A stretch of DNA of 64,000 bases from Planctomycetia bacterium (GTDB lineage: Bacteria; Planctomycetota; Planctomycetia; Pirellulales; UBA1268). Where the stretch lies: assembly GCA_037129475.1 (NCBI GenBank), contig JBAXUY010000002.1, forward strand, positions 50,170 to 114,169. The letters are read 5' to 3'. Positions 11,349 to 54,083 of this stretch are shown here, piece by piece. The notes beneath the pieces were generated by a model. The model was not told the DNA's origin. It saw only the letters and a list, made by a program, of their open reading frames with translations, and ran no database searches. Position 1 is the first letter of the stretch. Each line of letters opens with the position of its first letter. The position numbers and the translations under genes were made by a program.

Positions 11349-12398
11349 ATGCCGCTCGTCCCCATGCGCATCCTGCTCGACCACGCCGCCGAACATGGCT
11401 ACGGCCTCGCCGCCTTCAACGTCAACGACATGGAGCAGATCCAGGCGATCATGGAGGCGGCCAACGAGACCGACAGCCCCGTGATCGTGCAGGCCTCGCG
11501 GGGCGCGCGCAGCTACAGCCAGGACAACTACCTCCGGCATCTCATGCTCGCCGCGGCGGAACTCTATCCGAAGATCCCGATCGCGATGCACCAGGACCAC
11601 GGCAACTCGCCGGCCACCTGCCAGAGCGCGATCGACAACGGCTTCACGAGCGTGATGATGGACGGCTCGCTCAAGGAAGACGGCAAGACCCCGGCCGACT
11701 TCGACTACAACGTGAAGGTGACGAAGGAGGTCGTGGGGCTGGCCCACCGGCAGGGCGTGTCGGTGGAGGGCGAGCTCGGCTGCCTCGGGTCGCTCGAGAG
11801 CGGCGAGGGCGAGGCCGAGGACGGCCACGGCGCGAGTGGAAAACTCTCCCACGACCAACTGCTCACCGACCCCGACGAGGCGGCGCGATTCGTGGCGTCC
11901 ACCGGCGTCGACGCGCTGGCCGTGGCAATCGGCACGAGCCACGGTGCCTACAAGTTCACCCGCAAGCCCGACGGTGATGTGCTCGCGATGAAGCGGATCG
12001 AGGAGATCCACCGCAAGCTCCCCAACTGCCACCTCGTGATGCACGGCTCGTCGAGCGTGCCGCAGGATCTCCAGGACGTCATCAACAAGTACGGCGGCAA
12101 GATGCCGCAGACATGGGGCGTGCCCGTCGAGGAGATCCAGAAGGGCATCAAGCACGGCGTCCGCAAGATCAACGTCGACACCGACTGCCGCATGGCGATC
12201 ACGGGCGCGATCCGCAAGGTGCTCTTCGAGTCGCCCGAGAAGTTCGACCCGCGCGACTACCTGAAGCCGTCGCGCGAGGCGATGAAGAAGGTGTGCGGCG
12301 AGCGCATGGTGCAATTCGGTCAGGCCGGCAACGCCGGCAAGGTGAAGTGCATCACGCTGGCAGAAATGGCTGGGCGTTACGCGCGCGCCGGCTCGTGA
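11349..12398 (+). CDS. fba: Class II fructose-1,6-bisphosphate aldolase
   Basis: [38 protein letters not shown]...[14 protein letters not shown]...MHQDHG...[14 protein letters not shown]...[10 protein letters not shown]. Full-length match to the class II FBA pattern. Confidence 0.95.
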
Positions 12399-12442
12399 CT
12401 GCCCAGACCCTCTCGCTTGACGTTCGCTGCGTTGGCCGCGCG

Positions 12443-12690
12443 CCGGCTTCGGGCTCCCCATATCCCGTCGCCGGACGTTCACTGCGCCCATCCATGGGCT
12501 CCGTTCACTCGGAGTGACAGGCGCTGCGCCATCCTGGCTCCGCTGGTCACTCACGCCGGCTCCCGGGACGTGGGGAGCCCGAAGCCTCCCCCGTAGCGAC
12601 AGAGCTCCAGCTCTGTCGATCGACAGGCCTGGAGGCCCGTAGCGAACGTCCGGCGAGACGGTACGGGGTAACCCCGAGCCGGCGCACGCG
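12443..12690 (+). repeat. Composite structured intergenic element, copy A (long-range stem, embedded REP, inverted partial arm)
   Basis: The 5' arm GGCTTCGGGCTCCCCA (12445..12460) pairs with TGGGGAGCCCGAAGCC (12571..12586). It is followed by a REP unit. An inverted partial copy of the 5' arm region lies at 12644..12690. About 70 percent identical by eye to 36098..36277. Confidence 0.6.
12593..12648 (+). repeat. REP-like two-hairpin palindromic element (copy a, 3' hairpin degenerate)
   Basis: GTAGCGACAGAGCT-CC-AGCTCTGTCG-AT-CGACAGGCCTGGAGGCCCGTAGCG. Confidence 0.75.
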
Positions 12691-12771
12691 AGTTCGCTGG
12701 AATGTAGATGGCTAGCCGGTGGAAAGCTGCATTGCGGCGGGTTGCCCAGTCGCCCTATAGTCCCGCCCCTC

Positions 12772-20303: not shown

Positions 20304-21391
20304 CCGGGCAGCCGCCGAGGGCGATGCTCATGGTCGCGCGCGGGCTCGACCCCGTGGGTACCGGCCGCCAGATCGAACTCGCGGCGGAAGCATTTCGTGC
20401 CGCCGGATGGAATGTGGCACTCGCGGTGGGCACGGTGGACGGCTCCGTGCCCACGCGGCTCGCGGCACGTGGGTTCCCGGTACACCGCATCGGCTTCCGG
20501 CCCGAGTTCGATACTGCCGTGGCGCTGCGGCTTGCGGGATTGTGTCGCAGGCTGAAGCCGTCGGTGATGCACGCCTGGGGCCGATCAGCGGCGCTTTGCA
20601 CGGGCGCGATCCGGCCGCTCGGCGGCCGCGTCGCGGCTGTCGCGCATCTGGCCACGGGGCCTCGATCGCGCCGGCTCGGGTGGGCCCTCGCGCGGCTCGA
20701 CCGCGTGATCACGGTGTCGGCCGGCGTCGCGGGCCGCTGCGAAGCGGTTGGCGTGCGATCGGGCCGGATCGACATCCTGCCACCCGGCATCGACCCTGCT
20801 GAGCCGGCGGGGCTGTCGAGGGAGGAACTGGCCGCACGGCTCGGCCTCCGCACCGACACGCAGTGGACGCTGTGCGTCGCCCCGCTCACGTGGGAAGCCC
20901 GGCTCGAGCGGCTGTTGTGGGCAATCGATCAACTGGCCGTCGTTCACCGTGGCGTCGAGCACGTGCTCGTGGGGCGGGGACCGCTCGCGGCTCGGATGCA
21001 CAGAAGGGCCCGGGTGCAGCATCTCGCCGAACGGCTGCACGTCGTGCCGCACTGCGACGCCCTGCCCGATCTGGTGCGGGCCAGCCAGCTCGTCTGGCAG
21101 TCGGGCGACGTGGCCTACGGCGGTGCGATCCTCGATGCCATGGCTTGCGGCGTGCCGGCCGTCGCCGTGGCGAGTGATGCCGCGCGGCAACTGATCGCCG
21201 ACGGCGTGACGGGGCGCGTCGTGGCGGCCGACCCGGAGAGTGAGTTTCCGCGGCGGGCGTTCAACGTGCTCGAGGATGCAGAGCTGGCCACACGCTACGG
21301 CGACGCGGCACGGGTGCGTGTTGCCGGGCAGTTTTCCGCCGGGCCGGCGCTCGCGCGGCACGTCGAGGCGGTGGAACGGCTGGTGGCGTAG
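20300..21391 (+). CDS. Glycosyltransferase family 1 (GT4-like)
   Basis: The ATG at 20300 overlaps the hpt stop (ATGA). The N-terminal Rossmann half reads LMVARGLDPVGTGRQIELAAEAFRAAGWNV. The C-terminal half carries a GT1-type EX7E-like region (YGGAILDAMACGVPAVAV ... LIADGVTGRVV). Confidence 0.8.
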   Translation: MTGQPPRAMLMVARGLDPVGTGRQIELAAEAFRAAGWNVALAVGTVDGSVPTRLAARGFPVHRIGFRPEFDTAVALRLAGLCRRLKPSVMHAWGRSAALCTGAIRPLGGRVAAVAHLATGPRSRRLGWALARLDRVITVSAGVAGRCEAVGVRSGRIDILPPGIDPAEPAGLSREELAARLGLRTDTQWTLCVAPLTWEARLERLLWAIDQLAVVHRGVEHVLVGRGPLAARMHRRARVQHLAERLHVVPHCDALPDLVRASQLVWQSGDVAYGGAILDAMACGVPAVAVASDAARQLIADGVTGRVVAADPESEFPRRAFNVLEDAELATRYGDAARVRVAGQFSAGPALARHVEAVERLVA

Positions 21392-21442
21392 GGACGGAGC
21401 TCCAGCTCTGTCCGTTCGACAGGCCTGGAGGCCTGTCGCTAC
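21388..21442 (+). repeat. REP-like two-hairpin palindromic element (copy b, most complete in this orientation)
   Basis: GTAGGGACGGAGCT-CC-AGCTCTGTCC-GTT-CGACAGGCCT-GG-AGGCCTGTCG-CTAC. It lies between convergent genes. The TAG of the glycosyltransferase (21389..21391) and the stop of fhcA (CTA on the plus strand, 21439..21441) are both inside it. Confidence 0.85.
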
Positions 21443-22938
21443 GCCGTCAGTGTCTGGCCTGATGGCAGAGCCTTCACCTCGCCGTCCTCGGCCACGAGCA
21501 TGCCTGCCTTGTACGCCCGGGCAGGCATCGAAAACATCCGCGCGAGATCGCTATTCGGCCGATAGAGGGTGATGTCGGCATCGGCCCCGACGCCGAGATG
21601 GCCCTTGTGCGCGAGGCCCGCGATCCGGGCGGGTGCGGCCCGCGTCACGATGCACAGTTCCTGGAGCGAGTATTCGCGGCTGATTCCGGCGAGCGGGCTT
21701 CGCTTCCGCACCGCGGGATGGATGCGAGCGATCGCCTCTCGGCGGAAGGCCTCGTCGCCCAAGAGCTGCATCAGTACGGGATACGCCGTGAAGTGGGCGC
21801 CGTTCGGATGGTCGGTCGAGAGGGCCACCCGCCACGGATCGGTGACGGTGAGAAACCACTCGAGGCCGATCGCCCACTGCCAGGCATGGATCAGGCTCTT
21901 TTCCTTGTACGCGATCGGCAGCACGCCGCAGCCACCCTCGAGATGCAGGTCGTGCGACATCCAGGGCGTGCCGGTGGCATGGGCGAGATGCTCCGCGGCG
22001 GCCGAGTCGCCCGTCATCGCCACCGTGTCGCCGAACAGGATCTGCCCGACGTCGAGCGTAAGTGTGTCATTGGCGTTGAAGTGTTCCACGAGCGGGGCGA
22101 CGCCCGACCCGAACGAGCCCTCGTCGAGATCGCCTCCTGAATAACTGTGGAACTGCACGTGGGCGAGATGGGCAGGCAGACCGTCGAACGTGCGCATCGT
22201 CTCGAGCATCGTCCGCCAGTTGCCCGGTAGTCCAAGATTCGCCGTGTGCACGTGGAGCGGATGCGGCAGGCCGATGGCCTGCACCGCTCGTGCGAGCCGG
22301 TCGAGGATCTGTCGGGGGGTGACCTGCCGGTCAGGGAGCGGCGTGTCGAGATCGTGATGGTCGCCGCGCCGACCGTGCTTCCAGAACGACGGCCCGCCCG
22401 GATTCGCCACCTTCACGGCCCAGCCCCTGCCGGCCCGCACTTTCTTGGCGAGCAGGGCCTCGCAGCGGGGCACGTCGTTGGCCGCGAGGGCGTCGAGCAT
22501 GTCGGCGTCGTCGGCCGCGAGGAGATAGATGCCCTTGTCGAGGATCGGCAGCTCGTCGAGCTCTGCGTGGGCGATCGCAGCCGCGCCGGTGGCGATCGCG
22601 GCGTCGAACACGGTGGTGTAGCCGAGGGCGGCGTAGAGGCCGCCCGTCGCGTGGATCGTGGGCACGGCGGCCGGGTGGGGAGAACGGTGGCGGGCGAGGT
22701 GGGGCGCGATCCGCCGGCCCGCGTTCACCTTCGGGCCCGCGACGTGGCTGTGGAGATCGACGCCACCCGGCATCACGACGAGCCCCGCGGCATCGACGGC
22801 AGTGAAGGCAGCCGGGTCGGTCGGTCGCCCGACGATCTTCCCGCCTTCGATCCAGATGTCAGCCACGACGCCGTCACGGTCGTTGGCCGGATCGTGGATC
22901 GTGCCACCGCGCAGGACGAACCGGTGCGTCGCGTTCAT
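21439..22938 (-). CDS. fhcA: Formylmethanofuran dehydrogenase/formyltransferase-hydrolase complex subunit A (amidohydrolase)
   Basis: ORF 21439..23301 trimmed to MNATHRFVLRGGTIHDPAN ... VVMPGGVDLHSHVAGPKVN ... LPHPLHVHTANLG ... AHLAHVQFHSY ... STDHPNG ... GADADITLY. Full-length FwdA/FhcA pattern. Confidence 0.85.
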   Translation of the reverse strand: MNATHRFVLRGGTIHDPANDRDGVVADIWIEGGKIVGRPTDPAAFTAVDAAGLVVMPGGVDLHSHVAGPKVNAGRRIAPHLARHRSPHPAAVPTIHATGGLYAALGYTTVFDAAIATGAAAIAHAELDELPILDKGIYLLAADDADMLDALAANDVPRCEALLAKKVRAGRGWAVKVANPGGPSFWKHGRRGDHHDLDTPLPDRQVTPRQILDRLARAVQAIGLPHPLHVHTANLGLPGNWRTMLETMRTFDGLPAHLAHVQFHSYSGGDLDEGSFGSGVAPLVEHFNANDTLTLDVGQILFGDTVAMTGDSAAAEHLAHATGTPWMSHDLHLEGGCGVLPIAYKEKSLIHAWQWAIGLEWFLTVTDPWRVALSTDHPNGAHFTAYPVLMQLLGDEAFRREAIARIHPAVRKRSPLAGISREYSLQELCIVTRAAPARIAGLAHKGHLGVGADADITLYRPNSDLARMFSMPARAYKAGMLVAEDGEVKALPSGQTLTA

Positions 22939-34330: not shown

Positions 34331-34406
34331 GTAGGGACAGGGCTCCAGCCCTGTCCACCGACCACGTAGGGACGGAGCTCCAGTTGGCCTGGAGGCCTGT
34401 CGCGAC
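34331..34406 (+). repeat. REP-like element (copy c, rearranged/duplicated)
   Basis: GTAGGGACAGGGCT-CC-AGCCCTGTCC is a perfect 10 bp stem carrying an A>G and T>C compensated pair relative to other copies. It is followed by GTAGGGACGGAGCTCCAG fused to TTGGCCTGGAGGCCTGTCGCGAC. It lies in the divergent HIT/scpA intergenic region. Confidence 0.75.
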
Positions 34407-35223: not shown

Positions 35224-36059
35224 TCGACAACGCCCCGCTCCGCTCGCTCGTCCACAAGGGGCTCACGATCGAGGGCTACTCCCGCGCGGCGGTGCAGAGC
35301 TACTGGCGGATCCCTGAATTGAAATTGGGGTTCGACCTGGGCGCGCAGCCGTGGAGCTTCATGGCCACGAGCACGTGGTTTCTCACCCACACGCACCTCG
35401 ATCACATCGCGGCCCTGCCCGTGTACGTGGCCCGGCGGCGAATGATGAAGATGGAGCCGCCCACGATCTACATGCCGGAGAGCGCGATCGAGCCGATCGA
35501 GAAGCTCTTGAAGGCGGTGAGCCGGCTCGACCGCGGCCGCCTCCCCTGCACGCTCCTGCCCGCCCGGCCGGGCGACGAGATCGAGCTCTCGCGGGAGCAC
35601 GTGGTGACGGTGTCGGGCACCTGCCACACGCTGCCGAGCGTGGGATTCGTGGTGTGGGAGCGGCGGCGGAAGCTCAAGCACGAGTTTCAGGGGCTGCCCG
35701 GCGACAAGATCCGTGATCTCCGGCTCTCGGGGGTCGACGTGACGCACGAGGTGCGCACGCCGCTCGTGGCCTATCTCGGCGACAGCTCCCCGGAGGGGCT
35801 CGACCGCTGTCCGGCGATGTTCGAGGCCATGGTATTGATCACGGAGCTCACCTTCGTGGCCCACGCCCACCGCAAGGAGAAGATCCACAAGTTCGGCCAC
35901 ATGCACCTCGACGACCTGCTCGCCCGCCGCGAGCGGTTTCACAACGAGGTGATCATCGCCACGCACTTCTCCACGCGCTACACCGACGACCGCATCCGCC
36001 GGATCCTCGCCAAGAAGCTCCCCGACATGCTCGACGGCCGCCTGCACGTTTGGCTCTAG
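35220..36059 (+). CDS. MBL-fold metallo-hydrolase (RNase Z-like)
   Basis: The ATG at 35220 overlaps the scpA stop (ATGA). HxHxDH motif in WFLTHTHLDHIAALP. Further His/Asp ligands lie in TCHTLPSVGF and KFGHMHLDD. Confidence 0.8.
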   Translation: MIDNAPLRSLVHKGLTIEGYSRAAVQSYWRIPELKLGFDLGAQPWSFMATSTWFLTHTHLDHIAALPVYVARRRMMKMEPPTIYMPESAIEPIEKLLKAVSRLDRGRLPCTLLPARPGDEIELSREHVVTVSGTCHTLPSVGFVVWERRRKLKHEFQGLPGDKIRDLRLSGVDVTHEVRTPLVAYLGDSSPEGLDRCPAMFEAMVLITELTFVAHAHRKEKIHKFGHMHLDDLLARRERFHNEVIIATHFSTRYTDDRIRRILAKKLPDMLDGRLHVWL

Positions 36060-36097
36060 AACGGGCTTCAGCGTGGCTTGGCCTCGACGCGCCCAGT

Positions 36098-36277
36098 CCG
36101 GCTCGGGGCTACCCATGCTCCATCGCCGGACGTTCGCCGCGGCCCTCCCGGCCTCGGCTCACTCGACTTCGACTGCGCTTCGGCATCCTGCCTGCGCTTG
36201 TCTGCATACGCCGGCGATTGGAGCACGGATAGCCCCGAGCCTCCCCTCTTCGTAGCGACAGAGCTCCAGTTCTGTCG
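36098..36277 (+). repeat. Composite structured intergenic element, copy B (ends in a single REP hairpin)
   Basis: The 5' arm GGCTCGGGGCTA (36100..36111) pairs with TAGCCCCGAGCC (36230..36241), the same 142 nt span as copy A. It ends with GTAGCGACAGAGCT-CC-AGTTCTGTCG (36252..36277). Confidence 0.6.
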
Positions 36278-36295: not shown

Positions 36296-37450
36296 ATGAA
36301 CGCTCCCCGCCATGCCTACGTGCACGTCCCGTTCTGTCGCCACCGGTGCGGCTATTGCGATTTCACGCTCGTGGCGGGGCGAGACGATCTGATCGAGCGG
36401 TATTTCGCGGCGCTCGCGATCGAAATCGAGCGAATCTCGAATGTGCCCGACGCGACGTCTGCTTCGGCGTGTCTGGAGCTAGACACGCTCTATCTTGGCG
36501 GCGGCACGCCTTCGCATCTCGGGCCCGACGGTCTACGGAAGCTCTTTGCATTGCTGCGCGAGCGGCTCGTGCCTGCCGCAGGGGCGGAGGTGACCGTGGA
36601 GGCGAATCCACTCGATGTGACCGGCGACTTCGTAACCGCCTGTCGCGATCTCGGCGTTACGCGCGTGAGTCTCGGGGGGCAGTCGCTCGATGCCGCCACG
36701 CTCCGGGCGCTCGACCGCGATCATGCGCCCGCCGACGTGCAGGGGGCCGTGAGCCGGCTGATCGACGCCGGCCTCGTCGTGAGCCTCGACCTGATGACGG
36801 CCGCGCCGGGGCAGACGCTCGCCGGGGCGGAAGGCGATCTGGCTGCCGCGGCTGCGCTCGACGTACAGCATGTGTCGGTCTACTGCCTCACGTGGGAGCA
36901 GGGGACGGCGTTCGAGTCGGCGCGGCGGCGGGGTGACCTCGTGCCGGCAGAGGAGTCGCTCGAGCGGGCAATGTTCGAGACGGCGATCGATCGGCTCGAG
37001 GCCGCCGGCTTCGAGCACTACGAGGTGAGCAACTTCGCCCGTTCGGGCTTCCGCTGCCGGCACAACGAGGCCTACTGGGACTGCCGGCCGTGGGAGGCGT
37101 TTGGCCCGGGAGCGGCCCGCTTCGACGGCCGGACGCGGATCACGAACCATCGCAGCACGACGACCTGGATCGCGAAGACGCTCGCGGGGGAGGATGCGAC
37201 GGGCGAGATCGACGCGATGACCGCCGAACAGGCGGCCCGGGAGCGGATCGTGGTGGGGTTGCGCCGCCGCGATGGCATCGACCGCGAGGCCTTTCACGCG
37301 GTGAGCGGGTTCGACCTCGACGTGCTGGCCGGACCGGCGATCGCCCGCTGGGTGGAGCGAGGGCTGGCGACCGACGATGGCGCGCGCGTGCGGCTCACGC
37401 GGGCGGGGCTGCTCGTGTCCGACGCGCTGTGGGCCGACGTGCTCACGTAG
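36296..37450 (+). CDS. hemW: Radical SAM heme chaperone HemW (oxygen-independent coproporphyrinogen oxidase-like)
   Basis: YVHVPFCRHRCGYCDF (CxxxCxxC) ... LYLGGGTPS ... EANP ... RVSLGGQS ... YEVSNFAR...CRHNEAYW. Confidence 0.9.
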   Translation: MNAPRHAYVHVPFCRHRCGYCDFTLVAGRDDLIERYFAALAIEIERISNVPDATSASACLELDTLYLGGGTPSHLGPDGLRKLFALLRERLVPAAGAEVTVEANPLDVTGDFVTACRDLGVTRVSLGGQSLDAATLRALDRDHAPADVQGAVSRLIDAGLVVSLDLMTAAPGQTLAGAEGDLAAAAALDVQHVSVYCLTWEQGTAFESARRRGDLVPAEESLERAMFETAIDRLEAAGFEHYEVSNFARSGFRCRHNEAYWDCRPWEAFGPGAARFDGRTRITNHRSTTTWIAKTLAGEDATGEIDAMTAEQAARERIVVGLRRRDGIDREAFHAVSGFDLDVLAGPAIARWVERGLATDDGARVRLTRAGLLVSDALWADVLT

Positions 37451-40400
37451 GGACGGAGCTCCAGCTCTGTCCTCCGACAGGCCTGGAGGCCCGTCGCTGC
37501 GCCCGGCGTCGCCGGGCCGCCCACGCCGCACAGGCTGCTCCGATTCCGACGAGCACGATCGTGGCCGGCTCGGGCACCACGATGATGTCGAGCGACGTGC
37601 CGCTTGCACCCACGCGCACGTAGACGTCCTTGCTTGGCAGAGCGGTGCCGCTCCAGCCGCCGGTGCCGTTCGTACCGCTGAGATTGATCGTGAACAGGCT
37701 CGTCAGGTTCATGCCCGCCGTGGCCGAGCCGAAGCCACCGGGCAGCACGAGGCTCGACAGGCTGTCGAAGCGAACGATCGGGAACACATACTGAGTGTTC
37801 GCGACGAAGTTCTGCGGCGCACCGTTCACGTCCGGTCCCGTCGAGGAGAGCGTCCAGAGGTTGAGGTTGAACGTGGACGAGTTCGACAGCCCTGACAGGT
37901 CGAGCGTGCCGCCCGTGCCGACCTGGATCAGGTCCCAGCCATTCACGTTGCCGGCGGTGCCCGAGACATCGAACAACTGCCAGTTGTAATTGCCGCCGGC
38001 CGCAAACACGGCGCCCGCACTCGTGATCGTGCCGGGCGAGTTGCCCGGCGTGATCGTGCCGCCGCTGCCCACCGTGATCGTGCCCACCGTGCCGCTGCCG
38101 GCGAGGATCGCCCCCGCGTTGATGTCGACCGCCGAGGCGAGGCTCGCGCCGGACTGCACGAACACCGTACCGGCATTGATGTCGAGCGGCCCGGTGAACG
38201 TGCTCGCTCCGGTGAACCTCACGAGGCCCGCACCGTTCTTGGCGAGCGTCCGCCCCGAGCCGGTCTCGCCGAGCGACGCGATCGTGACGTTGGTCACGGC
38301 GTTGATCGCCGAGTTGGCGGTGAGCGTGCCCGAGCCGGTGAAGGTAAAGGCGCCGTTCTCGGTCTCGTTGCCGATCGCCACACTGCCACCGAGCGACCAG
38401 GGGGTCGAGATGGTGCGTGCATCGGTGCCCGTGCTCGACAGCGTGCCGCCGTTGAGGGCGGCGGCCAAGCCGAGGGCGGCGTCGGCGCCGATCCGGATTC
38501 GGCCCGCGGAGAGCGTCGTCCCGGCCTGCGAGTTGGGAGTCGTGAGCGTGAGCGTCGCGGCCCCCGCCTTGGTGAGCGTGTAGCCGCTCACGGCGTTCAT
38601 CGAGACGTCACTGTCGAGCGTGACCGTGCTCGCGGCGAGCAGCTGGACGCCGTTGGAGAACGAGAGCAGGCCCGAGTCGGTCGTGTCGCCGAGCGTCGTG
38701 CTGCCGTTCAGGGCGACGAGATTCGCGAGGTCGCGGGGCGCGGTGCCGGTGCTCGAGAGCCGGCCGCCGGCGAGCGTGACGGTGCCGGCCGTGCCGAGCG
38801 CGTTGTCGGCGCCCAGCCGCAGCCGGCCCTCGGTGAGCGTCGTGCCGCCGGAGTAGCTGCTCGCGGCGGTGAGCGTGAGCGTGCCCGCGCCCGCCTTCGT
38901 GAGCGAGTACGTGCTGCCGGCGGCCTGGGTGATCTGGCCCATCTGTACCTCGCTCAGGAGCGCGAGGGTGCTGCTTGAGAGCAGCGTCGAGGTGCCGGTG
39001 AACGCGAGCGGGCCGTTGTCGACCGTGTCGCCGAGCGTCGAGCTCCCGTTGAGCGTCATGGCGTTGGCGATCGTGCGGGTGGCCGAGCCGGTGCCGGAGA
39101 GCGTGCCGCCGGCGAGCGACACGGTGCCGGTGCTCAAGGCGCCGTCGTTGCCCGCCCGTACGCGGCCCGCGGCGAGGATCGTGTTGCCGTGGGTGTTGGA
39201 GCCCGTCAGCGTGAGCGTGCCCGTGCCCGACTTCGTGAACGCCTGGCTCGTGCCGGCGAGCTTGGCCATCGTCACGTCGCTCACGAAGCTCACCGTCGAG
39301 GTCGTGGTGAGCGTCGTCGTGCCGGTGAACGCGAGGGGCGCGATGTCGGTGGCGTCCCCGAACGTGGCCAGGCCCGTGAGCGACACGGCGTTGCCGATCG
39401 TGCGGGCCGCGGAGCCCGTGCCAGACAGGATGCCGCCGGTGGTGAGCGTGAGCGTGCCGGTGGCGCCGAGGGCGTAGTCGTCGCCGAGCTGGAGCCGGCC
39501 CGCGTTCACGGTCGTGTTGCCGTAGGCGTTGGAGCCGGTGAGCGTGAGCGAGCCGGTGCCGCTCTTCGTGAGGGCGAACGTGCTGCCCGAGGTCTGGGTG
39601 AGCGAACCGATCGTCACGTTGCTCAGGGCGCCGATCGTGGAGCTGGCGACGAGCCGGAGCTGGTTGAGCGTCAGGTCGCCCGTGTCGGCGGCGTCGCCGA
39701 GCGTCACCGAGCCGGTGAGCGTGACCTGGTTGGCGATCGTCCGGGCGGCGGCGCCGTCGCTCGACAGGGCCCCGGTGGTGAGCGCGACCGTGCCAGACGA
39801 GCCGAAGGCGGCGTCGCTGGCGACGCGGATCCGGCCGGCGGTGAGCGTGGTGTTGCCGTAGTCGCCGGTGCCGGTGAGCGTGAGCGCGGCCGTGCCGGCC
39901 TTCGTCAGGTTGAAGCCCTGCCCCGCGATCGGGCCCATCGTCACGCTGCTGGCGATGCCCACCGTGGAGCTGGCGAGCAGGGTCGTCGTGCCGGTGAGGG
40001 CGAGCGTGCCGGAGTCGGTCGTATTCCCGAGCGTCACGCTGCCGCTTTGGATCGTGATCGCATTGGCGATCGAGCGGGCGACCGTGCCGGTGCCGGAGAG
40101 CGTGGTGCCGGCGGCGAGCGAGAGCGTGCCGGAGCCGAGGGCCGTGTCGCTGCCGAGCCGGAGAATGCCCGTGCTCAAGATCGTGTTTCCGTAGTTGCCG
40201 GAGCCGATGAGCGTGAGCGTGGCTGAACCGCTCTTCGTGAGGTCGAATCCGGCAGACGTGCCCGTGACGTTCGCGAGCGTGACGCCGCTCAACACCGTGA
40301 GCGTCCGGCTGCCGGTGAGCGTGGACGTGCCGGCGAACGTGAGGGCCGCCGTGTCGGTGGCCGCACCGAGTGTCACGTTGCCGTCGAACACGACCGGCCG

Positions 40401-43400
40401 GGAGATCGTGCGGGCGGTCGTGCCGGTGCCCGTCACCGTGACGCCCCCCGCGAACGTCGCCGTGCCGGTCGTGCCGAGCGCGTTGTCGTTGCCGAGACGG
40501 AGCACGCCGGCATTCACCACCGTGTTGCCGTAGGCATTGGAGGCGGAGAGCGTGAGCGTGCCGTTGCCCGCCTTCGTGAGCGCGTTCGAGCCGCCCGAGA
40601 CGGCGCCCGAGAGCGTCACGCTGCTCGACACCGTGAGCGTACGGTCGGCCGAGAACGAGGTCGTGCTCGAGAACGTGAGCGGCGCGGTGTCGCCCGAGGC
40701 GGCGCCGAGCGTGGCATTGCCGGCGAGCACGAGCGGCCGGGCGACGATGAGGGCGGTGGCGCCCGTGCCGGTGAGCGTGACGCCCTGGTTGAGCGTGACG
40801 GTTCCGGAACCGCCGAGGGACGTCGCATTGCCGATCCGTACCGTGCCTTCAGCGATCGTGGTGCCCGCCTGCCCGCCCGTCCCCGTGATCGTGAGCGTGC
40901 CCAGGCCCGCCTTCGTGAACAGGTACGTTCCGGAGACGACGTTCATCGTGGCGTTGCTCGCGAACGTCACCGTGCTCGCGGCGGTGAGCGTCGAGGTGCC
41001 CGTGAAGGAGAGCGCGCCGTTGTTGGTCGCGTCGCCGACCGTGACGGTGCCGCCGAGCGACACGGGGTTGGCGACCGAGCGGGCCGTGGCCCCGTCGCTC
41101 GAAAGCGTGCCGCCCGCGAGCGTCACCGCGCCGGTGCTGCCGAGGGCGAAGTCGCCGCCGAGCAGGATCCGGCCGGCTGAGAGCGTCGTGCCGCCGTAGG
41201 AGTTCGACCCGGAGAGCGTGAGCGTGCCGGCGCCGGCCTTCGTGAGCGTGCGGCTCGTGCCGTCGTTGCCGATGTTGCCCGAGAACACCACGTCGCTCGG
41301 CAGCGTGATCGTGGCGTTGGCCGTCATCGTCGCCGGGCCGGTGAACGAGAGCGTGGCGTTGTCGGTCGTGTCGCCGAGGGTCACGCTGCCGGCGAGGCCG
41401 ACCGAGTTGCCGAACGACCGCGGGTCGGAGCCGACGCCGGAGAGCGTGCCGCTCGTGAGCGTGAGCGTGCCCGAGCCGAAGGCGGTGTTCGAGCCCGCGC
41501 GAACCTCGCCGGCCGCGAGCGTGAAGCCGCCCGTGAAGGTGTTGCCGCCGTTGATCGTGAGCGAGCCGGCCCCCGACTTCGAGAGGCCGAGCCCGCCCGA
41601 GAGCGTGCCCGACAGGACGGCGTCGCTCGCCGCGACGAGCGACTGCACGCCCGAGCCGGTGCCGTTGCCGGAGAGCGTGAGCGTGCCCGAGTTGACGGCG
41701 TCGCCGAGCGTCGTGGTGGCCGAGATCACGAAGTCGTTGGCGAGCGTGCGGGCGGTCGTGCCGTCGCTCGTGAGGCCGCCGCCGGCGAACGTCACCGTGC
41801 CCGACCCGAGCGGGCTGTCGGCCCCGAGCTGGAGCAGGCCGCCCTGCACGTTCACGGCGCCGCTGCCGCTGCTCGTGCCGCTGGCGAGCAGCGTGCCCGA
41901 GGCGAGCGTCGTGGGGCCGCCGTAGGTGTTGGTGCCCGAGAGCACGAGCAGGCCCGCGCCCGTCTTCGTGAAGCCGTTCGCGTCACCAGTGCCGCTGCCG
42001 ATGGGGCCGGAGAGCCTCACGGTGCCGTCGTTGGAAATCGTGGTGGTCGTGACGAGCGTCGTCGGCCCGGCGAACGTGAGGCTGCCGGTCGAGGTGCCGC
42101 CGAGCGTGACGGGGCCCTCCACGCGAAACTCGCCGCCGTAGGTGCGGGCCCCCGCGTCGGTGCTCTGGATCACGACGGTGCCGGTGGAGCCCGAGAGCGC
42201 CGTGCCCTTCGCGGTGAGCGAGCCGGCCACGCCGCCGAGCACGTTCGACCCGGGGCCGATCGCGAGCACGCCCTGCTGGATCTCGGTGCCGCCGACGTAG
42301 GTGTTGGCGGTGTTGGTCATCGTGAGCACCTGGCTCGCATCGGAGCCGCTGAAGACGAGCTTCAGGCTGCCGGCGGAACCCGAGTCGGTGAACGTGGGCG
42401 TGAGCGTGCCGCCGGCGGTGAGCGTGAGCGTGCTCGCGGAGCCACTCGAGTTGGTGACGATGCCCGTGCCGCTCACCGATTCGAACGAGTCGGAGTAGCC
42501 GGCGAGGTCGAACGTGCCGGAGAGGCCGCTCACGCCCGTGAGGATCTGGTTCGACGCCCCGAGCTTCACGGTCGCGCCGGCCGCCACGGAGGCGATCGCG
42601 TCGGTCTGGCCGGCCCTGGTGCTCGAGAGCACGAGCGTGCCGCCCTTCACCGTCCAGTCGGTTTCCACGGCATTCGTCGACGAGCCGGAGAATTCGACCG
42701 TGCCCCCGGTGACGCGGAGTTCCCCCGGAAGGTTCGCCGTGCCCGTCGTCCGGTTGATCGCGCCCGAGAGCGTGAGCCTGCTGCCCGGGGCGCTCGACAG
42801 TTCCACGATTCCGCCCGCCGTCTGGTAGACGGTGCCGGTGACCGTCTGATCGACGGGCGTGGAGAGTTGCAGCGTGCCGACGTTGCCCGAGTAACTCGAC
42901 GCCGTGAACTGGCCCGTCGGGGCGGGGGCCGTGGCCGAGAGCGACAGGACGAGCGTGCCATAGTCGACTTTCGTCGCACCCGAGTATGCGGCCGTGGCCG
43001 AGAGCGTTCCGGCACCGGTCTTGGAGAGACCACCTGAGCCGGTGATCGGCGTGGCGAAGTTCACCGTCTGGCCGTTGGTGTGGATGCTCGCCTGCTTGCC
43101 GCTGGCCACCGCGGCGAACTTGCCCGAGAGGTCGGTGTTCGTGCCGCTGTAGAAGAGCGTGCCGCCTTGGAAGTCGATTTCGTTGCCCGTGGCACCGGTC
43201 ACGTTCGCGAGCTGGTTGTCGTTCGAGAAGTCGAGATAGCCGGAGATGAGCGTGACGTCGCCCGTGAACGTGTTGGCCGAGCCGAGCCGGACGCGGCCGC
43301 CGCCGCCGTCGCCGCGGATCACGACCTGCGTGGGGTTCGTTCCGTCGGCGATCGCCGGGGCGAACGTGAGCACGCCCTGGCCGCCGCCGAGCCGGTAGGT

Positions 43401-44033
43401 CTGCGTGCCGCCCGCGTCGGTGTAGGGCGTGAACGATCCGTTGTAGGTGAGCGTGGAGGCCGAGCCAAGCGACAGGTTCGCGATGTTCGTGAGCCCGGCG
43501 TAGTCGCGTTTGTTGAAGTCGATCGTTTCGTTCGTGCTGCTCGCCGTGATCGCGAGGGCGCCGTTGGGGTTGTCGTTGATCCGGTTGCTGGCGAGCCATG
43601 AGGTGACGCTGCCGTAGGGGCCCGACGCGGAGAGGGCACCTCCGGAGAGGGTCACGTTGCCCTCCGCGGGGAACGCGGTGCCGGACGAGAACGTGACCAG
43701 ACCGTTGCCGATCACGGTGCCGCCGGAGTACGTGTTCGTGCCGGAGAGCGTGAGCGACGAGCCCCCCAGCTTCTGGAGCGTCGCGGAGCCCGACACCGGT
43801 CCTGAAATCGTGATCGAGTTGCCGGCGTTGATCGTGCGGGTGCCGGTGCCGGCGAGCGCGAACGGGCCGGTGAACGTGAGCCCGCCCGACACGCCGCTGC
43901 CTGTCGATCCGGCGGTGATGCTGCCGGACAGCGTCACGCCGTTGGCGATCGTGCGGTTCGAGCCGGTGGAGTAGATGTAGCCGCTCGAGAGCACGAGCGC
44001 GTCGGATCCGAGCGCGGCGTCGTTGCCGAGCAC
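37443..44033 (-). CDS. Giant autotransporter-associated beta-strand repeat protein, C-terminal portion with PEP-CTERM anchor (downstream part of a frameshifted gene)
   Basis: 2,196 aa ORF with no signal peptide and a GTG start inside repeat sequence. Dozens of units of the type LTKxGxGTLTLSGSNxYxGxTxxxxGxLxLG. C-terminus VVPEPATIVLVGIGAACAAWAARRRR is a PEP-CTERM motif. It is contiguous with the upstream ORF if one G is added at 44041..44048. Confidence 0.85.
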   Translation of the reverse strand: MLGNDAALGSDALVLSSGYIYSTGSNRTIANGVTLSGSITAGSTGSGVSGGLTFTGPFALAGTGTRTINAGNSITISGPVSGSATLQKLGGSSLTLSGTNTYSGGTVIGNGLVTFSSGTAFPAEGNVTLSGGALSASGPYGSVTSWLASNRINDNPNGALAITASSTNETIDFNKRDYAGLTNIANLSLGSASTLTYNGSFTPYTDAGGTQTYRLGGGQGVLTFAPAIADGTNPTQVVIRGDGGGGRVRLGSANTFTGDVTLISGYLDFSNDNQLANVTGATGNEIDFQGGTLFYSGTNTDLSGKFAAVASGKQASIHTNGQTVNFATPITGSGGLSKTGAGTLSATAAYSGATKVDYGTLVLSLSATAPAPTGQFTASSYSGNVGTLQLSTPVDQTVTGTVYQTAGGIVELSSAPGSRLTLSGAINRTTGTANLPGELRVTGGTVEFSGSSTNAVETDWTVKGGTLVLSSTRAGQTDAIASVAAGATVKLGASNQILTGVSGLSGTFDLAGYSDSFESVSGTGIVTNSSGSASTLTLTAGGTLTPTFTDSGSAGSLKLVFSGSDASQVLTMTNTANTYVGGTEIQQGVLAIGPGSNVLGGVAGSLTAKGTALSGSTGTVVIQSTDAGARTYGGEFRVEGPVTLGGTSTGSLTFAGPTTLVTTTTISNDGTVRLSGPIGSGTGDANGFTKTGAGLLVLSGTNTYGGPTTLASGTLLASGTSSGSGAVNVQGGLLQLGADSPLGSGTVTFAGGGLTSDGTTARTLANDFVISATTTLGDAVNSGTLTLSGNGTGSGVQSLVAASDAVLSGTLSGGLGLSKSGAGSLTINGGNTFTGGFTLAAGEVRAGSNTAFGSGTLTLTSGTLSGVGSDPRSFGNSVGLAGSVTLGDTTDNATLSFTGPATMTANATITLPSDVVFSGNIGNDGTSRTLTKAGAGTLTLSGSNSYGGTTLSAGRILLGGDFALGSTGAVTLAGGTLSSDGATARSVANPVSLGGTVTVGDATNNGALSFTGTSTLTAASTVTFASNATMNVVSGTYLFTKAGLGTLTITGTGGQAGTTIAEGTVRIGNATSLGGSGTVTLNQGVTLTGTGATALIVARPLVLAGNATLGAASGDTAPLTFSSTTSFSADRTLTVSSSVTLSGAVSGGSNALTKAGNGTLTLSASNAYGNTVVNAGVLRLGNDNALGTTGTATFAGGVTVTGTGTTARTISRPVVFDGNVTLGAATDTAALTFAGTSTLTGSRTLTVLSGVTLANVTGTSAGFDLTKSGSATLTLIGSGNYGNTILSTGILRLGSDTALGSGTLSLAAGTTLSGTGTVARSIANAITIQSGSVTLGNTTDSGTLALTGTTTLLASSTVGIASSVTMGPIAGQGFNLTKAGTAALTLTGTGDYGNTTLTAGRIRVASDAAFGSSGTVALTTGALSSDGAAARTIANQVTLTGSVTLGDAADTGDLTLNQLRLVASSTIGALSNVTIGSLTQTSGSTFALTKSGTGSLTLTGSNAYGNTTVNAGRLQLGDDYALGATGTLTLTTGGILSGTGSAARTIGNAVSLTGLATFGDATDIAPLAFTGTTTLTTTSTVSFVSDVTMAKLAGTSQAFTKSGTGTLTLTGSNTHGNTILAAGRVRAGNDGALSTGTVSLAGGTLSGTGSATRTIANAMTLNGSSTLGDTVDNGPLAFTGTSTLLSSSTLALLSEVQMGQITQAAGSTYSLTKAGAGTLTLTAASSYSGGTTLTEGRLRLGADNALGTAGTVTLAGGRLSSTGTAPRDLANLVALNGSTTLGDTTDSGLLSFSNGVQLLAASTVTLDSDVSMNAVSGYTLTKAGAATLTLTTPNSQAGTTLSAGRIRIGADAALGLAAALNGGTLSSTGTDARTISTPWSLGGSVAIGNETENGAFTFTGSGTLTANSAINAVTNVTIASLGETGSGRTLAKNGAGLVRFTGASTFTGPLDINAGTVFVQSGASLASAVDINAGAILAGSGTVGTITVGSGGTITPGNSPGTITSAGAVFAAGGNYNWQLFDVSGTAGNVNGWDLIQVGTGGTLDLSGLSNSSTFNLNLWTLSSTGPDVNGAPQNFVANTQYVFPIVRFDSLSSLVLPGGFGSATAGMNLTSLFTINLSGTNGTGGWSGTALPSKDVYVRVGASGTSLDIIVVPEPATIVLVGIGAACAAWAARRRRAQRRASRPVGGQSWSSVPT
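37447..37500 (+). repeat. REP-like two-hairpin element (copy e)
   Basis: GTAGGGACGGAGCT-CC-AGCTCTGTCC-TC-CGACAGGCCTGGAGGCCCGTCGCTGC. It contains the hemW TAG (37448..37450). On the other strand it is translated as the last 18 codons of the giant protein. Confidence 0.85.
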
Positions 44034-47000
44034 GAGCGAGCCCCCCCCTGCACGTTCGTCGTGCCGTTCTTACCAGCTCCGGCCGACGCACTGACGATGA
44101 GGGTGCCGGCTGACACGTTCGTGGTGCCGCTGTAGGTGTTGGCTCCGTTGAGCGTGAGCGTCGAGTTGCCGGCCTTCGTGAAGCCGTAGCTGCCGGTGAG
44201 CGGGCCCGTGAGCGTCACGTCGGCGCCGAGGGTGAGCGTGCGGTCGCCGGTGAGCACGCCCGTGCTGGAGAGCGTGAGGGCGGCGTTGTTCGTGCCGCTG
44301 CCGAACGTCGTGTTGCCGTCGAAGCTCACGCGCGAGTTGCCGAGCGCCTGGGCCACGGTGCCCGACGTGGCCAGCGTGCCGCCCCCGAGCGAGAGGGTGC
44401 CCGTGCCGAGAGCCGTGCCCGAGCCCACGAGCGTGGTGCCGGCGTTCAGCGACACCGGGCCGGAGTAGCCCGTGTTGGTGCCGGTGACGAGGAGCGTGCC
44501 GGCCCCGGCGTGCACGAACGTGCCGCTCCCGGCGAGCGTGGTGGCGAGCGTGGTCGTACCCGAGGCGGCCGTGGCGGTGCCCGAGGTGAACCGGAGCGTG
44601 CCGGTGTTCACGAGGTCGCCGGGGCCGGAGAGCGCGAGCGTGGTGACGGTGGTGTTGCCGGAGCCGGAGAACGTGCCGCCGGCGACCGTGAGGCTCGTGG
44701 CGGTGTTGGTGACCATGTTGGCGAACACGCCGCCGGCGTTGATCGTCACGTCGCCCGCGACGCCGTTGGTCGCGGAGTTGAGGAGCGTGCCCGAGCCGCT
44801 CACCGCGATCGCCCCGTTGAGCTTCGTGCCCGAGCCACTCACGGCGAGCGTGCCTTCGCTGACGGTGCCGCCGCCACCGAACGAACTCGTGCCGTTCAGG
44901 GTGAGCGTGCCGGTGCCTGTCTTCGTGAACGCGTTGCTGCCGGTGAGGCCGCGGGTGAAGAGCACGTCGCTGGCGAACGAGAGGGTGCCGCTGCCGACGA
45001 GCGAGCTCGTGCCGGTGAACGTGAGCGAGCCGGTGTTGACGGCGTCGCCGAGCGTCGAGTTGCCCGTGAACTGCACGGAGTTGTTGGCAATGCTGCGTGC
45101 CGTCGCCCCGTTGGAAGAGAGCTGGATCCCGCCGATCGAGAGGGCTCCGGTGCCGAAGGCCGTGCCCGTGGCGAGTTGCACGAGACCTGAACCGCCGAGC
45201 GTGGCGGTGCCCGAGTAGCCGGTGTTGGCCGTGTTCATCACGAGCGTGGCGCTGCCGCTGCGGTCGAAGCTGCTCGTGCCGCTGATCGGCGCGGTGAATG
45301 CGACCGTGCCACTGGTCGCCGTGACGTTGATCCCGTTCGTGGCCGTGATCGTGCCGGTGTTGAGCAGCGAGCCGCCGGCGCCCTGAACCTGGAGCCGGCC
45401 GACCGTCGTGCTCACGGTGGTCGCGAACGCGCCGCCGTCGAGCGTGACCGTGCCTGAGAGGGCATTCGCCCCAGCCGACGAATTCGTCAGTGTGCCGGAC
45501 GTGTTGACCAAGACGTTGCCAGTGAGCGTGGAAGAGGCGGCCAAGGTGAGCCCGCCACCAGTGATCGTCGTGCCACCAAAGCCGTTGGAGCCGCTCAGGG
45601 TGAGCGTGCCGGCCCCGGCCTTCGTGAAGGCGCCGGTGCCCGAGAGCCGGGTGAACGCGACGTCGCTCGCGAGCGTGAGCGTGCGGTCGCCGACGAGCGT
45701 GCCGGTGCCGGAGGCGAACGTGAGCGTGCCGGTGTTCACGGCGTCGCCGAGCATCGTGTCGGCGACGACCCGGATCTGCGTGTTGGCGAACGTGCGGGCC
45801 GTCGTGGAGTTCGACGAGAGCTGGGCGCCCTCGAGCGTGAGGAGGCCCGTGCCGAGCGAGGAGTTGTTGCCGGCCTGCACGAGTCCTGCGCTCCCGGTCG
45901 ACACGGTGGCCGTGTATGCGGCGAGGCTGCCGCTCATCACGAGCGTGCCGGTGCCGGTGCGGGTGAAGGAGCCGCTCGATCCGGACAGCGGCGCCGAGAA
46001 CGTGGTCGTGCCGCTCGCCGCCGTGACGTTGATCGCCGTGGCGGTGAGCGTGCCCGTGTTCGTCACCGCGCCGCCGCCGCCGCCGAGGGTGAGCGTGCCG
46101 AGCGAGGTGGCGCTCGCCCCGGTAAACGTGCCGCCATTCACCGTGACGTTGCCCGTGATGCCGTTGGCGACGCTGTTGGTGAGCGTGCCGGCCTTGAGCG
46201 TGACGGAGCCTGACACCGAGCCGCCCGCGCCGATCGTGAGGTTGCCCGCGCCGTCCTTCGTGAGCGTGCCGCCGTTGCCCAGCACGGAGTTGATCGCCGC
46301 GGCACCGGCGTTGTTGACCGCGTAGGAGCCGGCGGAGAGCGTGCCGGTGGAGACCGTGCCGCCCGTCAGCGAAAACGACGCGAGCGTCTGGGAGAAGCCG
46401 CCGAGGTCGAACGTGCCGCCCGACATCGAGAGCGTGCCGGTCGTCAGGAGCCTGTCGGCACCGCCGAGCTTGAGCGTGCCGGCGGAGATCGACGTCGAGC
46501 CGGTGTAGGTGTTGGCCGCGTTCAGGAGCAGGAGGCCGGCGCCGTTGTTCGCCAGCGACATCGATCCTGTGAGGACGCTGCCGATCGTGGCCGTGCCGGA
46601 GGCGAAGTTGGCCGTGAAGGGCCCGTTGACCGTGAGCGTGCCGCTCGTGATCGCGCTCGTGCCGCTCGTCACCGACCCCGAGGCGAGCGTCTGGGAGTTG
46701 CCCGCCCCGAGGTCGAACGTGCCGGCGCCCGTGATCGAGAGCGTGCCGGTGCTGGCCAGTACGTTGCTGCCCCCGAGTTTCAGCGTGCCGCCGGCGAGCG
46801 TGGTCGCGCCGGTGTAGGTGCTCGTGCCGTTGAGCAGGAGCGTGCCGGCGCCGCTCTTCGTGAGCCCGGCGGCACCGGCCAGTGTGGCATTCACCGTGGC
46901 CGTGCCCGTGGCGACGCTGGCGGAGAAGGAGCCCGTTGCGGTCAGCGTGCCGCTCGTGATCGTGCTCGTGCCGCTCGTGATGTTCAGGGCGGCAAGCTGC

Positions 47001-48946: not shown

Positions 48947-49232
48947 GAATTTGGATTGCCTGAAATTGATTTTGCGCGATCCGACAATCCCGTGCGCAAA
49001 CCGTTGCTGTGCAATGCTTTCCGGGGGCGCCGCCCTGCCGAATTCACCCGCGAGAGGGGGTGATGGCTATGCTCGCGCATCCGATTGCCCCGCTGTGCGC
49101 GGCCTGCGGCTGCGGGGGTTCATCGACCTCGATTCTGATGGCTTCGTGGCCGAGGTGAAGAAGATCCGCGGCAAGAAAAACCCGCTCTCCACGGCCGCAG
49201 TCACAAGCCTGCGGGAGGAGTTCGCCGGCGCC

Positions 49233-49346
49233 GCGATCGCCCGCCGGGTGGAGCAGGGGCTTGCCACCGACGACGGCTCGCGCGTGCGGCTCACGCGGGC
49301 GGGGCTGCTCGTGTCCGACGCGCTGTGGGCCGACGTGCTCACGTAG
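49233..49346 (+). pseudogene. Duplicated 3' fragment of hemW (last 37 or so codons), fused to unrelated upstream sequence
   Basis: It encodes AIARRVEQGLATDDGSRVRLTRAGLLVSDALWADVLT, against AIARWVERGLATDDGARVRLTRAGLLVSDALWADVLT at the hemW C-terminus. The DNA is identical over 49279..49368 versus 37383..37472. No hemW-like sequence lies upstream of 49233. Confidence 0.7.
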
Positions 49347-49454
49347 GGACGGAGCTCCAGCTCTGTCCATCCGACAGGCCTGGAGGCCCGTCGCTACGTT
49401 CATTCGACAGGCCTGGAGGCCTGTCGCTACGTCGGTCTGGAGGCCCGTCGCTAC
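49343..49454 (+). repeat. REP-like element cluster (copy f: hairpin 1 plus three copies of hairpin 2)
   Basis: GTAGGGACGGAGCTCCAGCTCTGTCC, then CGACAGGCCTGGAGGCCCGTCGCTAC, CGACAGGCCTGGAGGCCTGTCGCTAC and a truncated GGTCTGGAGGCCCGTCGCTAC. The pntB stop (CTA on the plus strand, 49451..49453) is inside the last unit. Confidence 0.85.
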
Positions 49455-53643: not shown

Positions 53644-53893
53644 CCTTTCGAGATTCTCGGCGGATTGCCATCGAGAAGGCCGGGCAGCCGATAACGACCC
53701 GCCCTCGGAGCCGAAGAGAGGCATGCTCGAGGGATGCTTCACGGAACGGCATGGCATCCTGCCGTCCGTTCCTTGGCCGACCTCCGTTGGCTGGTGCTGA
53801 CCCGGCCCTCCGGCCCTGGCGCGGAACAAGTCCTCAACGACTCCCTTCGTCTGCGCGTGCCCCCGACCGACTCCGCCGAACGTTCTTGGCGCT

Positions 53894-53947
53894 GTAGCGA
53901 CAGGCCTCCAGGCCTGTCGCTCGACAGAGCTGGAGCTCTGTCGCTAC
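53894..53947 (-). repeat. REP-like two-hairpin element (copy g, inverted orientation, both stems perfect)
   Basis: The plus strand reads GTAGCGACAGGCCT-CC-AGGCCTGTCGC-T-CGACAGAGCT-GG-AGCTCTGTCGCTAC, the reverse complement of the arrangement at the other loci. Confidence 0.85.
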
Positions 53948-54083
53948 GGAGCCGGCGCAGGCTTCGAAGAGCGCCGGGCGGCACAACCGGCATATCTGGC
54001 CCAGAGGGCGGATTTCTTCCGGTCGGATGCCGAAGGCATACTCATGGGGTAGGCCGACCCCAGTTCCCGGAGGATGCCCTGCC

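Follow-up and report, generated by a model that had tools for sequence, protein, structure and literature searches.

A family of structured palindromic repeats, probably mobile, at gene ends in freshwater Planctomycetia

The spacer between fba and kdsD in a planctomycete genome contains a long structured element, and a similar element lies upstream of hemW in the same 64,000-nt stretch of DNA, which we refer to as the window. A sequence-only reading of the window had proposed that the pair is either a functional RNA (a small RNA, or a processing or termination module) or a structured MITE. The locus therefore raises the question of whether the element is an RNA tied to the genes beside it or a repeat that spreads between loci.

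Two full copies and two truncated halves in the window

The first copy (copy A) is flanked by fba (class II aldolase) and kdsD (SIS and CBS domains), with a HAD phosphatase gene after kdsD. The second (copy B) is flanked by a gene with no Pfam match, when the ORF is taken from its first start codon, and by hemW (radical SAM and HemN_C domains). Both spacers, as first read, separate plus-strand genes: fba then kdsD, and the gene upstream of hemW then hemW. When aligned, the fba-kdsD spacer and the second spacer, termed MBL-hemW in that reading, are colinear with a mean column identity of 75%, against an estimate by eye of about 70 percent. The features of the two loci, and the separate REP sites in the window, are as follows:

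12381..12442, plus strand: truncated 5' half-copy of a different subfamily (leader GCGCGC, 5' arm CCGGCTCGTGACTGCCCAGACCC, variant box CTCGCTTGACGTTCGC, junction TGCGTTGGCCGCGCGC)
12443..12590, plus strand: copy A, a full unit; hairpin 12445-12586 with long stem P1 and two internal hairpins, and trailer UCCC
12592..12643, plus strand: GTAG-tagged REP doublet, REPIN-like (GTAGCGACAGAGCTCCAGCTCTGTCG, AT, CGACAGGCCTGGAGGCC...), from pattern matches and inverted-repeat families I1 and I2
12625..12690, minus strand: truncated inverted 5' half-copy, subfamily CCGGCTCGGGGTTACCCCGTACCGTCTCGCCGGACGTTCGCTAC, remnant of a tail-to-tail partner
36057..36097, plus strand: decayed GTAG-type REP (TAGAACGGGCTTCAGCGTGGCT) and element leader CTCGACGCGCCCAGTC; 33 of 41 positions match module GTAGGACAGGCTTCAGCCTGTCATGCCTCAACTCGCCCAATC, by eye
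36098..36249, plus strand: copy B, a full unit; hairpin 36100-36241, then trailer UCCCCUCUU
36251..36277, plus strand: single GTAG-tagged REP (CGTAGCGACAGAGCTCCAGTTCTGTCG), outside the element
12593, 21388-21449, 34331-34400, 36252, 37447-37498, 49343-49455 and 53894-53956: GTAG REP sites, mostly inverted doublets or clusters in the style of REPINs/BIMEs

Direct reading of the sequence confirmed the arm pairings proposed for both copies: GGCTTCGGGCTCCCCA (12445-12460) pairs with TGGGGAGCCCGAAGCC (12571-12586) in copy A, and GGCTCGGGGCTA (36100-36111) pairs with TAGCCCCGAGCC (36230-36241) in copy B. The hairpin spans 142 nt in both, and the A and B arms differ at positions 5, 6 and 12, every time with a compensating change, again as claimed. 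We found that the stem extends inward to ~31 pairs in both copies and that there are six compensated differences in total rather than three, the additional ones being in the inner stem (UCCCG/CGGGA in copy A vs CUCCA/UGGAG in copy B). The inner end of the stem is a conserved GCCGG-A-CGU/ACGCCGGC helix that encloses two small hairpins. Predicted minimum free energies were -107.5 kcal/mol for copy A (z -7.0 vs shuffles) and -104 kcal/mol for copy B (z -8.7 vs shuffles), and an nhmmer profile of A and B matched the copies with E values of 1.9e-39 and 4.4e-40, respectively. The box TCGCCGGACGTTC, earlier singled out as conserved, occurs exactly three times in the window, compared to an expectation of 0.48, with the third occurrence in the inverted partial copy at 12644-12690. 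In the window, the family profile detects two units in full and two 5' halves, both truncated.

The truncated halves both flank copy A. The plus-strand half-copy, which is absent from the sequence-only reading, overlaps the fba stop codon; its arm matched the profile at 12389-12431 (E 3e-9), and the family profile gave E 6e-6. The same junction, "half arm + GCTGCGTTGATCGCGCGC + full copy", is also present in loci L012, L050 and L002. The inverted half-copy matched the family profile at 12681-12625 on the minus strand (E 3e-11), with a box match at 12644-12656 on the minus strand. An inverted partial copy with a box is thus present at 12644..12690, as had been noted; it is the remnant of a neighboring unit, however, and not a duplicate of copy A's own arm, since the window and L108 share the same two subfamilies. 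At the orthologous site, subfamilies "GTGACTGCCC" on the plus strand and "GGGGTTACCCC" on the minus strand form a doublet that is intact in L108. In the window, only the outer 5' ends of both remain (12381-12442, and 12625-12690 on the minus strand), and copy A and the REP doublet lie between these two remnants.

Both spacers had been described as ending in a REP hairpin. A GTAG-tagged REP does follow both copies, but we ruled out the terminal REP as part of the element because other modules occupy that position in other genomes. The REP doublet at 12592..12643 belongs to a separate repeat family and lies between copy A and the remnant of its inverted partner. Upstream of copy B, the stop codon of the preceding gene is the TAG of the decayed REP; the module that this REP and leader resemble, GTAGGACAGGCTTCAGCCTGTCATGCCTCAACTCGCCCAATC, precedes many copies of the element elsewhere.

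The window contains several other repeats. The GTAG REP family, with consensus GTAG[CG]GAC[AG]G-NNNN-CCAG-NNNN-CTGTC[CG], is separate from the element, and 8 of 13 heads are on the plus strand. Several of these REPs overlap stop codons; the hemW TAG (37448-37450) is inside a GTAG. The last ~115 nt of hemW together with a REP doublet (37330-37450) are repeated ~12 kb downstream at 49228-49345, at the 3' end of a different ORF. The two copies differ at 11 of 119 nt, and it looks as if the end of a gene had been copied along with its REP. An ~85-nt module (...GGGCCGGAGGCCCGGGTGAACACCAGCCGACAGAGGTCGGCCAAGCGAACAGCGGCACGATGCC...) is present at 53737-53821 on the minus strand of the window and in L012, L016, L032, L054, L063, L080 and L085. 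It occurs solo and, when joined to a second module of ~70 nt, also nested in a hairpin loop of some copies of the element. Lastly, ~10 kb of the window (about 38000-48100) consists of imperfect ~330-nt repeats with many direct-repeat families; the first part is spanned by a minus-strand ORF of 2196 aa (37443-44033) that looks like a giant repeat protein.

A repeat family with a maintained fold

We searched for further members of the family with a pattern scan, CCGGCTN{15,25}TCGCCGGACGTTC, using one genome per species, and found at least 105 loci. Among the loci listed, 96 belong to 27 planctomycete assemblies by record title; the assemblies are mostly labeled Planctomycetia, Pirellulales or Planctomycetaceae and come from lakes, with a few under other labels such as Candidatus Kuenenia and Chitinophagaceae. 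On the loci listed, nhmmer with the profile of A and B gave 155 matches, about 92 of them full length, and a covariance model built from 85 full copies gave 134 matches, scoring copies A and B at 132.7 and 132.8 bits, respectively. Sixteen of the 134 are truncated at a contig end, in keeping with a repeat that breaks short-read assemblies. The covariance model had no match in nine non-planctomycete and five viral-contig pattern matches, which are hence chance hits, and we found no real matches to the element in plasmid and phage collections. A search of the window against Rfam gave no match at the gathering score, and two permissive local searches gave only chance-level matches (E at least 3.8). 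In the literature we found no description of the element, only a general report of GTAG REPs in Planctomycetes (PMC3733652).

The similarity between copies A and B is far beyond chance, since the element recurs 134 times in related genomes, with copies at different loci of one genome being up to 98.6% identical. We conclude that A and B very likely belong to a dispersed repeat family with a selected fold. They are probably members of an undescribed family of ~145-nt structured palindromic repeats found only in a freshwater clade labeled Planctomycetia/Pirellulales. A shorter relative of ~90 nt with the same termini (CCGGCUUCGGGGGAG...CUCCCCCGCAGCCUCC) is present at L106 4200-4290 and in L092 and L096, and replaces the inverted partner in some doublets.

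Each unit consists of a leader (GCGCGC or CGCCCAAnC), a long stem, two internal hairpins with a UCC loop, and a CCUCC trailer. The arms, CCGGCU...GCCGGACGU, are ~35 nt long and surround a 72-nt core. The base of the long stem (CCGGCU/AGCC) and its tip (the GCCGG-A-CGU helix) are conserved, and the ~20 pairs between them vary and covary. We derived this structure from a MAFFT alignment of 85 copies and a majority vote of the individual folds, which replaced an RNAalifold consensus that was fragmentary owing to indels, and later from a covariance-model alignment of all 134 copies. In the 85 copies, 82.8% of cells were paired, compared to 72.5% for shuffled sequences and 31-48% when the partner was slid by one to three columns, and 35 of 54 pairs had double changes. 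In the 134 copies, 83.4% of cells were paired (slid controls 25-50% overall), with double changes in 41 of 54 pairs and 739 double-change cells; this alignment is model-fitted and so biased toward structure by construction, and many double-change cells are inherited within subfamilies and so are not independent events.

Covariation was widespread in the long stem, with three or four pair types at several pairs. The small hairpins also covaried: for example, 27 copies had CG in place of GC, 39 had GC in place of CG and 44 had UA in place of AU. By contrast, the stem base (GGC/GCC) and the inner GCCGG/CCGGC helix were hardly variable, and the terminal loops were near-invariant UCC (113 and 120 of the 134 copies). 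Given how many different pair types occur and how the slid controls behave, there is little doubt that pairing is maintained across the family. The covariation proposed from two copies is thus statistically supported on both 85 and 134.

Placement at gene ends and polymorphic sites

We determined the placement of the copies using crude gene calls from the G+C content of codon positions (GC3), checked against the known genes of the window. Copies are intergenic and downstream of gene 3' ends, often abutting stop codons. Where both neighbors could be called, none of 22 copies was between divergent genes, as compared to about a quarter expected from random placement; 14 were between co-directional and eight between convergent genes. 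About a third of copies are in tail-to-tail doublets, mixed with GTAG REPs and other modules. All 23 adjacent pairs were tail-to-tail, with gaps of 10-54 nt and none tandem or head-to-head, and the partners were always unlike (63-76% identity). A GTAG REP of another type frequently lies in front of a unit. Truncated and nested copies also occur, and some hold other repeat modules inside the hairpin loop.

We compared the fba site across relatives, starting from 80 metagenome loci that encode fba relatives and using the subset whose protein is 90-95% identical. Copies occupy the site in the window, in L106 and L115 (single copy) and in L108 and L109 (inverted doublet). The site is empty in L107, L110-L112, L114 and L116-L120, where the spacer is ~30 nt and leads straight into a conserved block. 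Insertion has changed the end of the fba gene: codons 345-349 (A-R-A-G-S) and the TGA stop (12396-12398) derive from the left half-copy, and the ARAGS* type of ending is common to the window, L106 and L108, as opposed to RYGRS*, RYGRG* or RYANA* in empty-site relatives. Flank matching identified two further polymorphic sites, for a total of three filled/empty orthologous sites. L008, L012 and L076 carry elements at the orthologous site of copy B, from different subfamilies and in different arrangements. No target-site duplication was definable from filled and empty sites, whose flanks are only 80-92% identical. TCAACT on both sides was ruled out as a duplication because copies with the GCGCGC leader lack TCAACT on the 5' side, and the leaders GCGCGC and CGCCCAAnC were rejected because they are recurrent and part of the element.

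The conserved block, TTGCGG-N18-TATAGT, lies at 12732-12761, ten bases upstream of the kdsD ATG (12772). It is kept in every fba-kdsD relative examined (L106-L122), including those of low G+C content, and elements at the fba site lie upstream of it and leave it intact. Judged from its sequence, the block is promoter-like and would imply a nearly leaderless kdsD mRNA; our promoter scan makes no call on it. We dropped an alternative promoter before kdsD, TTGCCC-N17-TATAGT, since the spacing fits TTGCGG-N18-TATAGT.

Placement after genes could mean that the element is mainly a host-beneficial 3'-end module, in which the hairpin halts transcription or protects mRNA 3' ends and mobility is secondary. 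Its absence between divergent genes and its frequent contact with stop codons are consistent with such a role, as are the very stable RNA folds of the sense strand (mean -77 kcal/mol) and the precedent of ERIC and Correia elements, which affect mRNA stability (PMC3184786). However, purifying selection against promoter insertions would equally account for the absence from divergent spacers, and a plain hairpin role leaves unexplained the UCC loops, the conserved base and tip of the stem, the strict tail-to-tail pairing, and the strand asymmetry described below. Scans for intrinsic terminators (a G+C-rich hairpin and U tract) found no sites; the trailers are UCCCC or UCCUCAACU. We consider a primary 3'-end function quite unlikely.

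We also considered a cis-acting or small regulatory RNA that acts on the flanking genes, by modulating read-through from fba to kdsD or through sRNA processing. The strong fold, the covariation and the conserved loops would all be expected of such an RNA, and single copies after a gene 3' end have their pyrimidine-rich strand in the sense of the upstream gene more often than not (37 vs 17; binomial p 0.009). Nonetheless, the element is missing from this spacer in relatives whose fba is 90-95% identical, and the TTGCGG-N18-TATAGT block before kdsD is retained there, the genes beside the 134 copies are unrelated with no recurrent protein family, and both orientations and truncated pieces occur. 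In addition, scans detected neither a sigma-70-type promoter nor a U-tract terminator, and there was no Rfam match. A regulatory RNA for the flanking genes is therefore very unlikely.

Strand asymmetry and the route of spread

Mismatches within the fold are distributed unevenly between the two strands. In paired columns of the aligned strand (the plus strand for copies A and B), we counted 312 A:C vs 44 G:U combinations, and 449 C:U vs 67 G:A, so that the complement has G.U and G.A where the aligned strand has C.A and C.U. Arm-to-arm pairwise alignments had a mismatch bias in the same direction (166 vs 12), and A:C exceeded G:U in 30 columns, with the reverse in 10 (sign test p 0.002). Unpaired positions of the aligned strand were 79% pyrimidine. 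The complement folds better as RNA, by a mean of 10.8 kcal/mol, in 84 of 85 copies; with DNA parameters, too, it has the better fold. A strand-symmetric process acting on duplex DNA does not predict this asymmetry, suggesting that the purine-rich strand, i.e. the complement of the strand folded in the sequence-only reading, is the one whose fold is selected. Given the orientation of single copies, the better-folding strand is usually antisense to the upstream gene, which fits neither simple lagging-strand transposition of single-stranded DNA nor a co-transcribed RNA.

These observations bear on the possibility that the element is a DNA palindrome with no single-stranded function, kept either by intra-element gene conversion or cruciform repair, or as a duplex to which a nucleoid protein or gyrase binds, as in BIMEs. 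Strict maintenance of Watson-Crick pairing would give the near absence of G-U pairs from the aligned strand and the low number of one-sided changes (at most six per pair). It does not predict strand-asymmetric mismatches, the 79% pyrimidine content of unpaired positions or the better fold of the complement, nor does it explain covarying small internal hairpins with conserved loops, making this possibility highly improbable. Least credible is a decoy or regulator RNA acting through its loops, either as a sponge of the CsrA/RsmA type (GGA loops AGGAU and UGGAG) or by pairing of UCC/CCUCC loops with Shine-Dalgarno sequences: the near-invariant UCC (GGA on the other strand) of both terminal loops, the CCUCC trailer, the purine-rich loops and better fold of the complement, and what we take to be a resemblance to CsrA sites and UCCC-loop sRNAs are set against the mixed orientation relative to genes and the fact that conserved loops are equally expected of a transposase recognition site.

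We favor as likely that the copies form a new structured repeat family of the MITE/REPIN/bcr1 kind, with selection acting on its fold in single-stranded form. To a similar degree, we think it likely that the element transposes, even though presence and absence at a site could also stem from deletion or recombination between repeats, and near-identical copies in different species fit long-term conservation as well as recent movement. Of the two earlier readings of the window, the structured MITE fits these results, with copies that are dispersed, polymorphic, truncated, nested, paired and contig-breaking, and an RNA tied to fba/kdsD or hemW is not supported.

As a mobile repeat, the element would be non-autonomous and propagated in trans, with the fold rather than the stem sequence being recognized, so that the relevant form would be single-stranded. 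The likeliest route would be single-stranded DNA handled by a hairpin-recognizing HUH/Y1 enzyme of the RAYT or IS200-IS605 kind; we regard this particular route as possible if doubtful, and the form in question could instead be RNA. GTAG REPs coexist with the element in the same genomes and are abundant in the window. GTAG REPs are the classical substrates of RAYTs and accompany RAYTs elsewhere. A tblastn search of the window and 185 loci (~1.1 Mb) with an approximate E. coli RayT query found nothing, a weak test given that RAYT genes are typically single-copy. In the same ~1.1 Mb, no pair of arms encloses a gene, longer variants carry only non-coding modules, and clustering of the proteins neighboring the copies revealed no recurrent family and no transposase beside any copy. 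Once inserted, a copy can rewrite gene termini, as at fba; it would probably be co-transcribed at the gene end and may happen to serve as a 3' hairpin. ERIC and Correia elements make a secondary role of this kind for mRNAs plausible by analogy (PMC3184786).

The family shares features with several known systems and matches none of them fully. REPINs/BIMEs are REP doublets associated with RAYT/TnpA-REP (Bertels and Rainey, 2011, PMC3116915; Di Nocera et al., 2013, PMC3733652). As in those, inverted arms and a spacer form one long hairpin that is preserved across copies; hundreds of extragenic copies lie after genes, arranged as inverted pairs and combined with other modules into mosaics; and classical GTAG REPs adjoin the elements in the window. 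Whereas a REP is a tagged, imperfect palindrome of 20-40 nt, the element has ~35-nt arms rather than short palindromes, and its ends (CCGGCU... and ...AGCCUCC) lack the GTAG or CGTC tag that the neighboring 26-nt REPs have. Unlike in REPINs, the 72-nt "spacer" is conserved and structured, with two covarying hairpins with UCC loops, and no RAYT flanked by element arms was found in ~1.1 Mb.

The bcr1 element of the Bacillus cereus group is about 155 bp long, transcribed and flanked by 5-bp direct repeats (PMC3184786). The planctomycete element resembles it in size, in a chromosomal distribution that varies between strains, and in a multi-branch fold kept by compensatory changes; it differs in having no definable target duplication, no sequence relationship to bcr1 and a host from another phylum. 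ERIC/IRU, Correia (nemis) and RUP elements are likewise imperfect intergenic palindromes of 100-160 bp that are polymorphic between relatives and alter gene ends; they are often co-transcribed at 3' ends, and have TIRs that match a transposase family and defined TA or similar duplications (PMC3184786). Terminal inverted repeats, a size within 50-500 bp and insertion polymorphism are all as in classical MITEs, but a parent IS with matching TIRs was not found in the ~1.1 Mb searched. In addition, the middle of the element's "TIR", unlike that of a MITE, varies freely if pairing is kept, indicating that the fold would be recognized rather than a duplex TIR sequence. Lastly, PATEs derived from IS200/IS605 and the TIR repeats of TIRYT genes are non-autonomous and have single-stranded DNA hairpins read by HUH/Y1 enzymes, for which strand-specific behavior is expected, as we propose for the element (PMC3733652, PMC6006769). 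These have distinct subterminal left and right hairpins, whereas the element has one end-to-end stem, and no linked Y1 gene was found here.

A more specific version of the mobile-repeat reading, which we consider unlikely, is that the element makes up the non-coding part of a REPIN-like pair that is new to Planctomycetes; a three-way-junction hairpin with GGA/UCC loops and its stem ends would then be read strand-specifically by a dedicated candidate protein. The reader could be a hairpin-recognizing HUH-type transposase or, if the purine-rich strand is transcribed, an RNA-binding protein. If this were the case, the tail-to-tail pairing of unlike copies and the six- to seven-fold excess of mismatches that are G.U/G.A on the complement would be direct footprints of a single-stranded intermediate.

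The family has practical consequences for the study of these genomes: copies of the element break metagenome assemblies (16 of 134 at contig ends), and elements of this kind could be mistaken for riboswitches or sRNAs since they pass covariation tests. It opens no new category of element, and is well suited to finding out whether repeats that depend on their fold move as single-stranded DNA or in RNA form. It also represents a large structured family in a phylum where mobile non-coding DNA has barely been described, and because long metagenome series exist from lakes that harbor the same lineages, new insertions would be directly observable.
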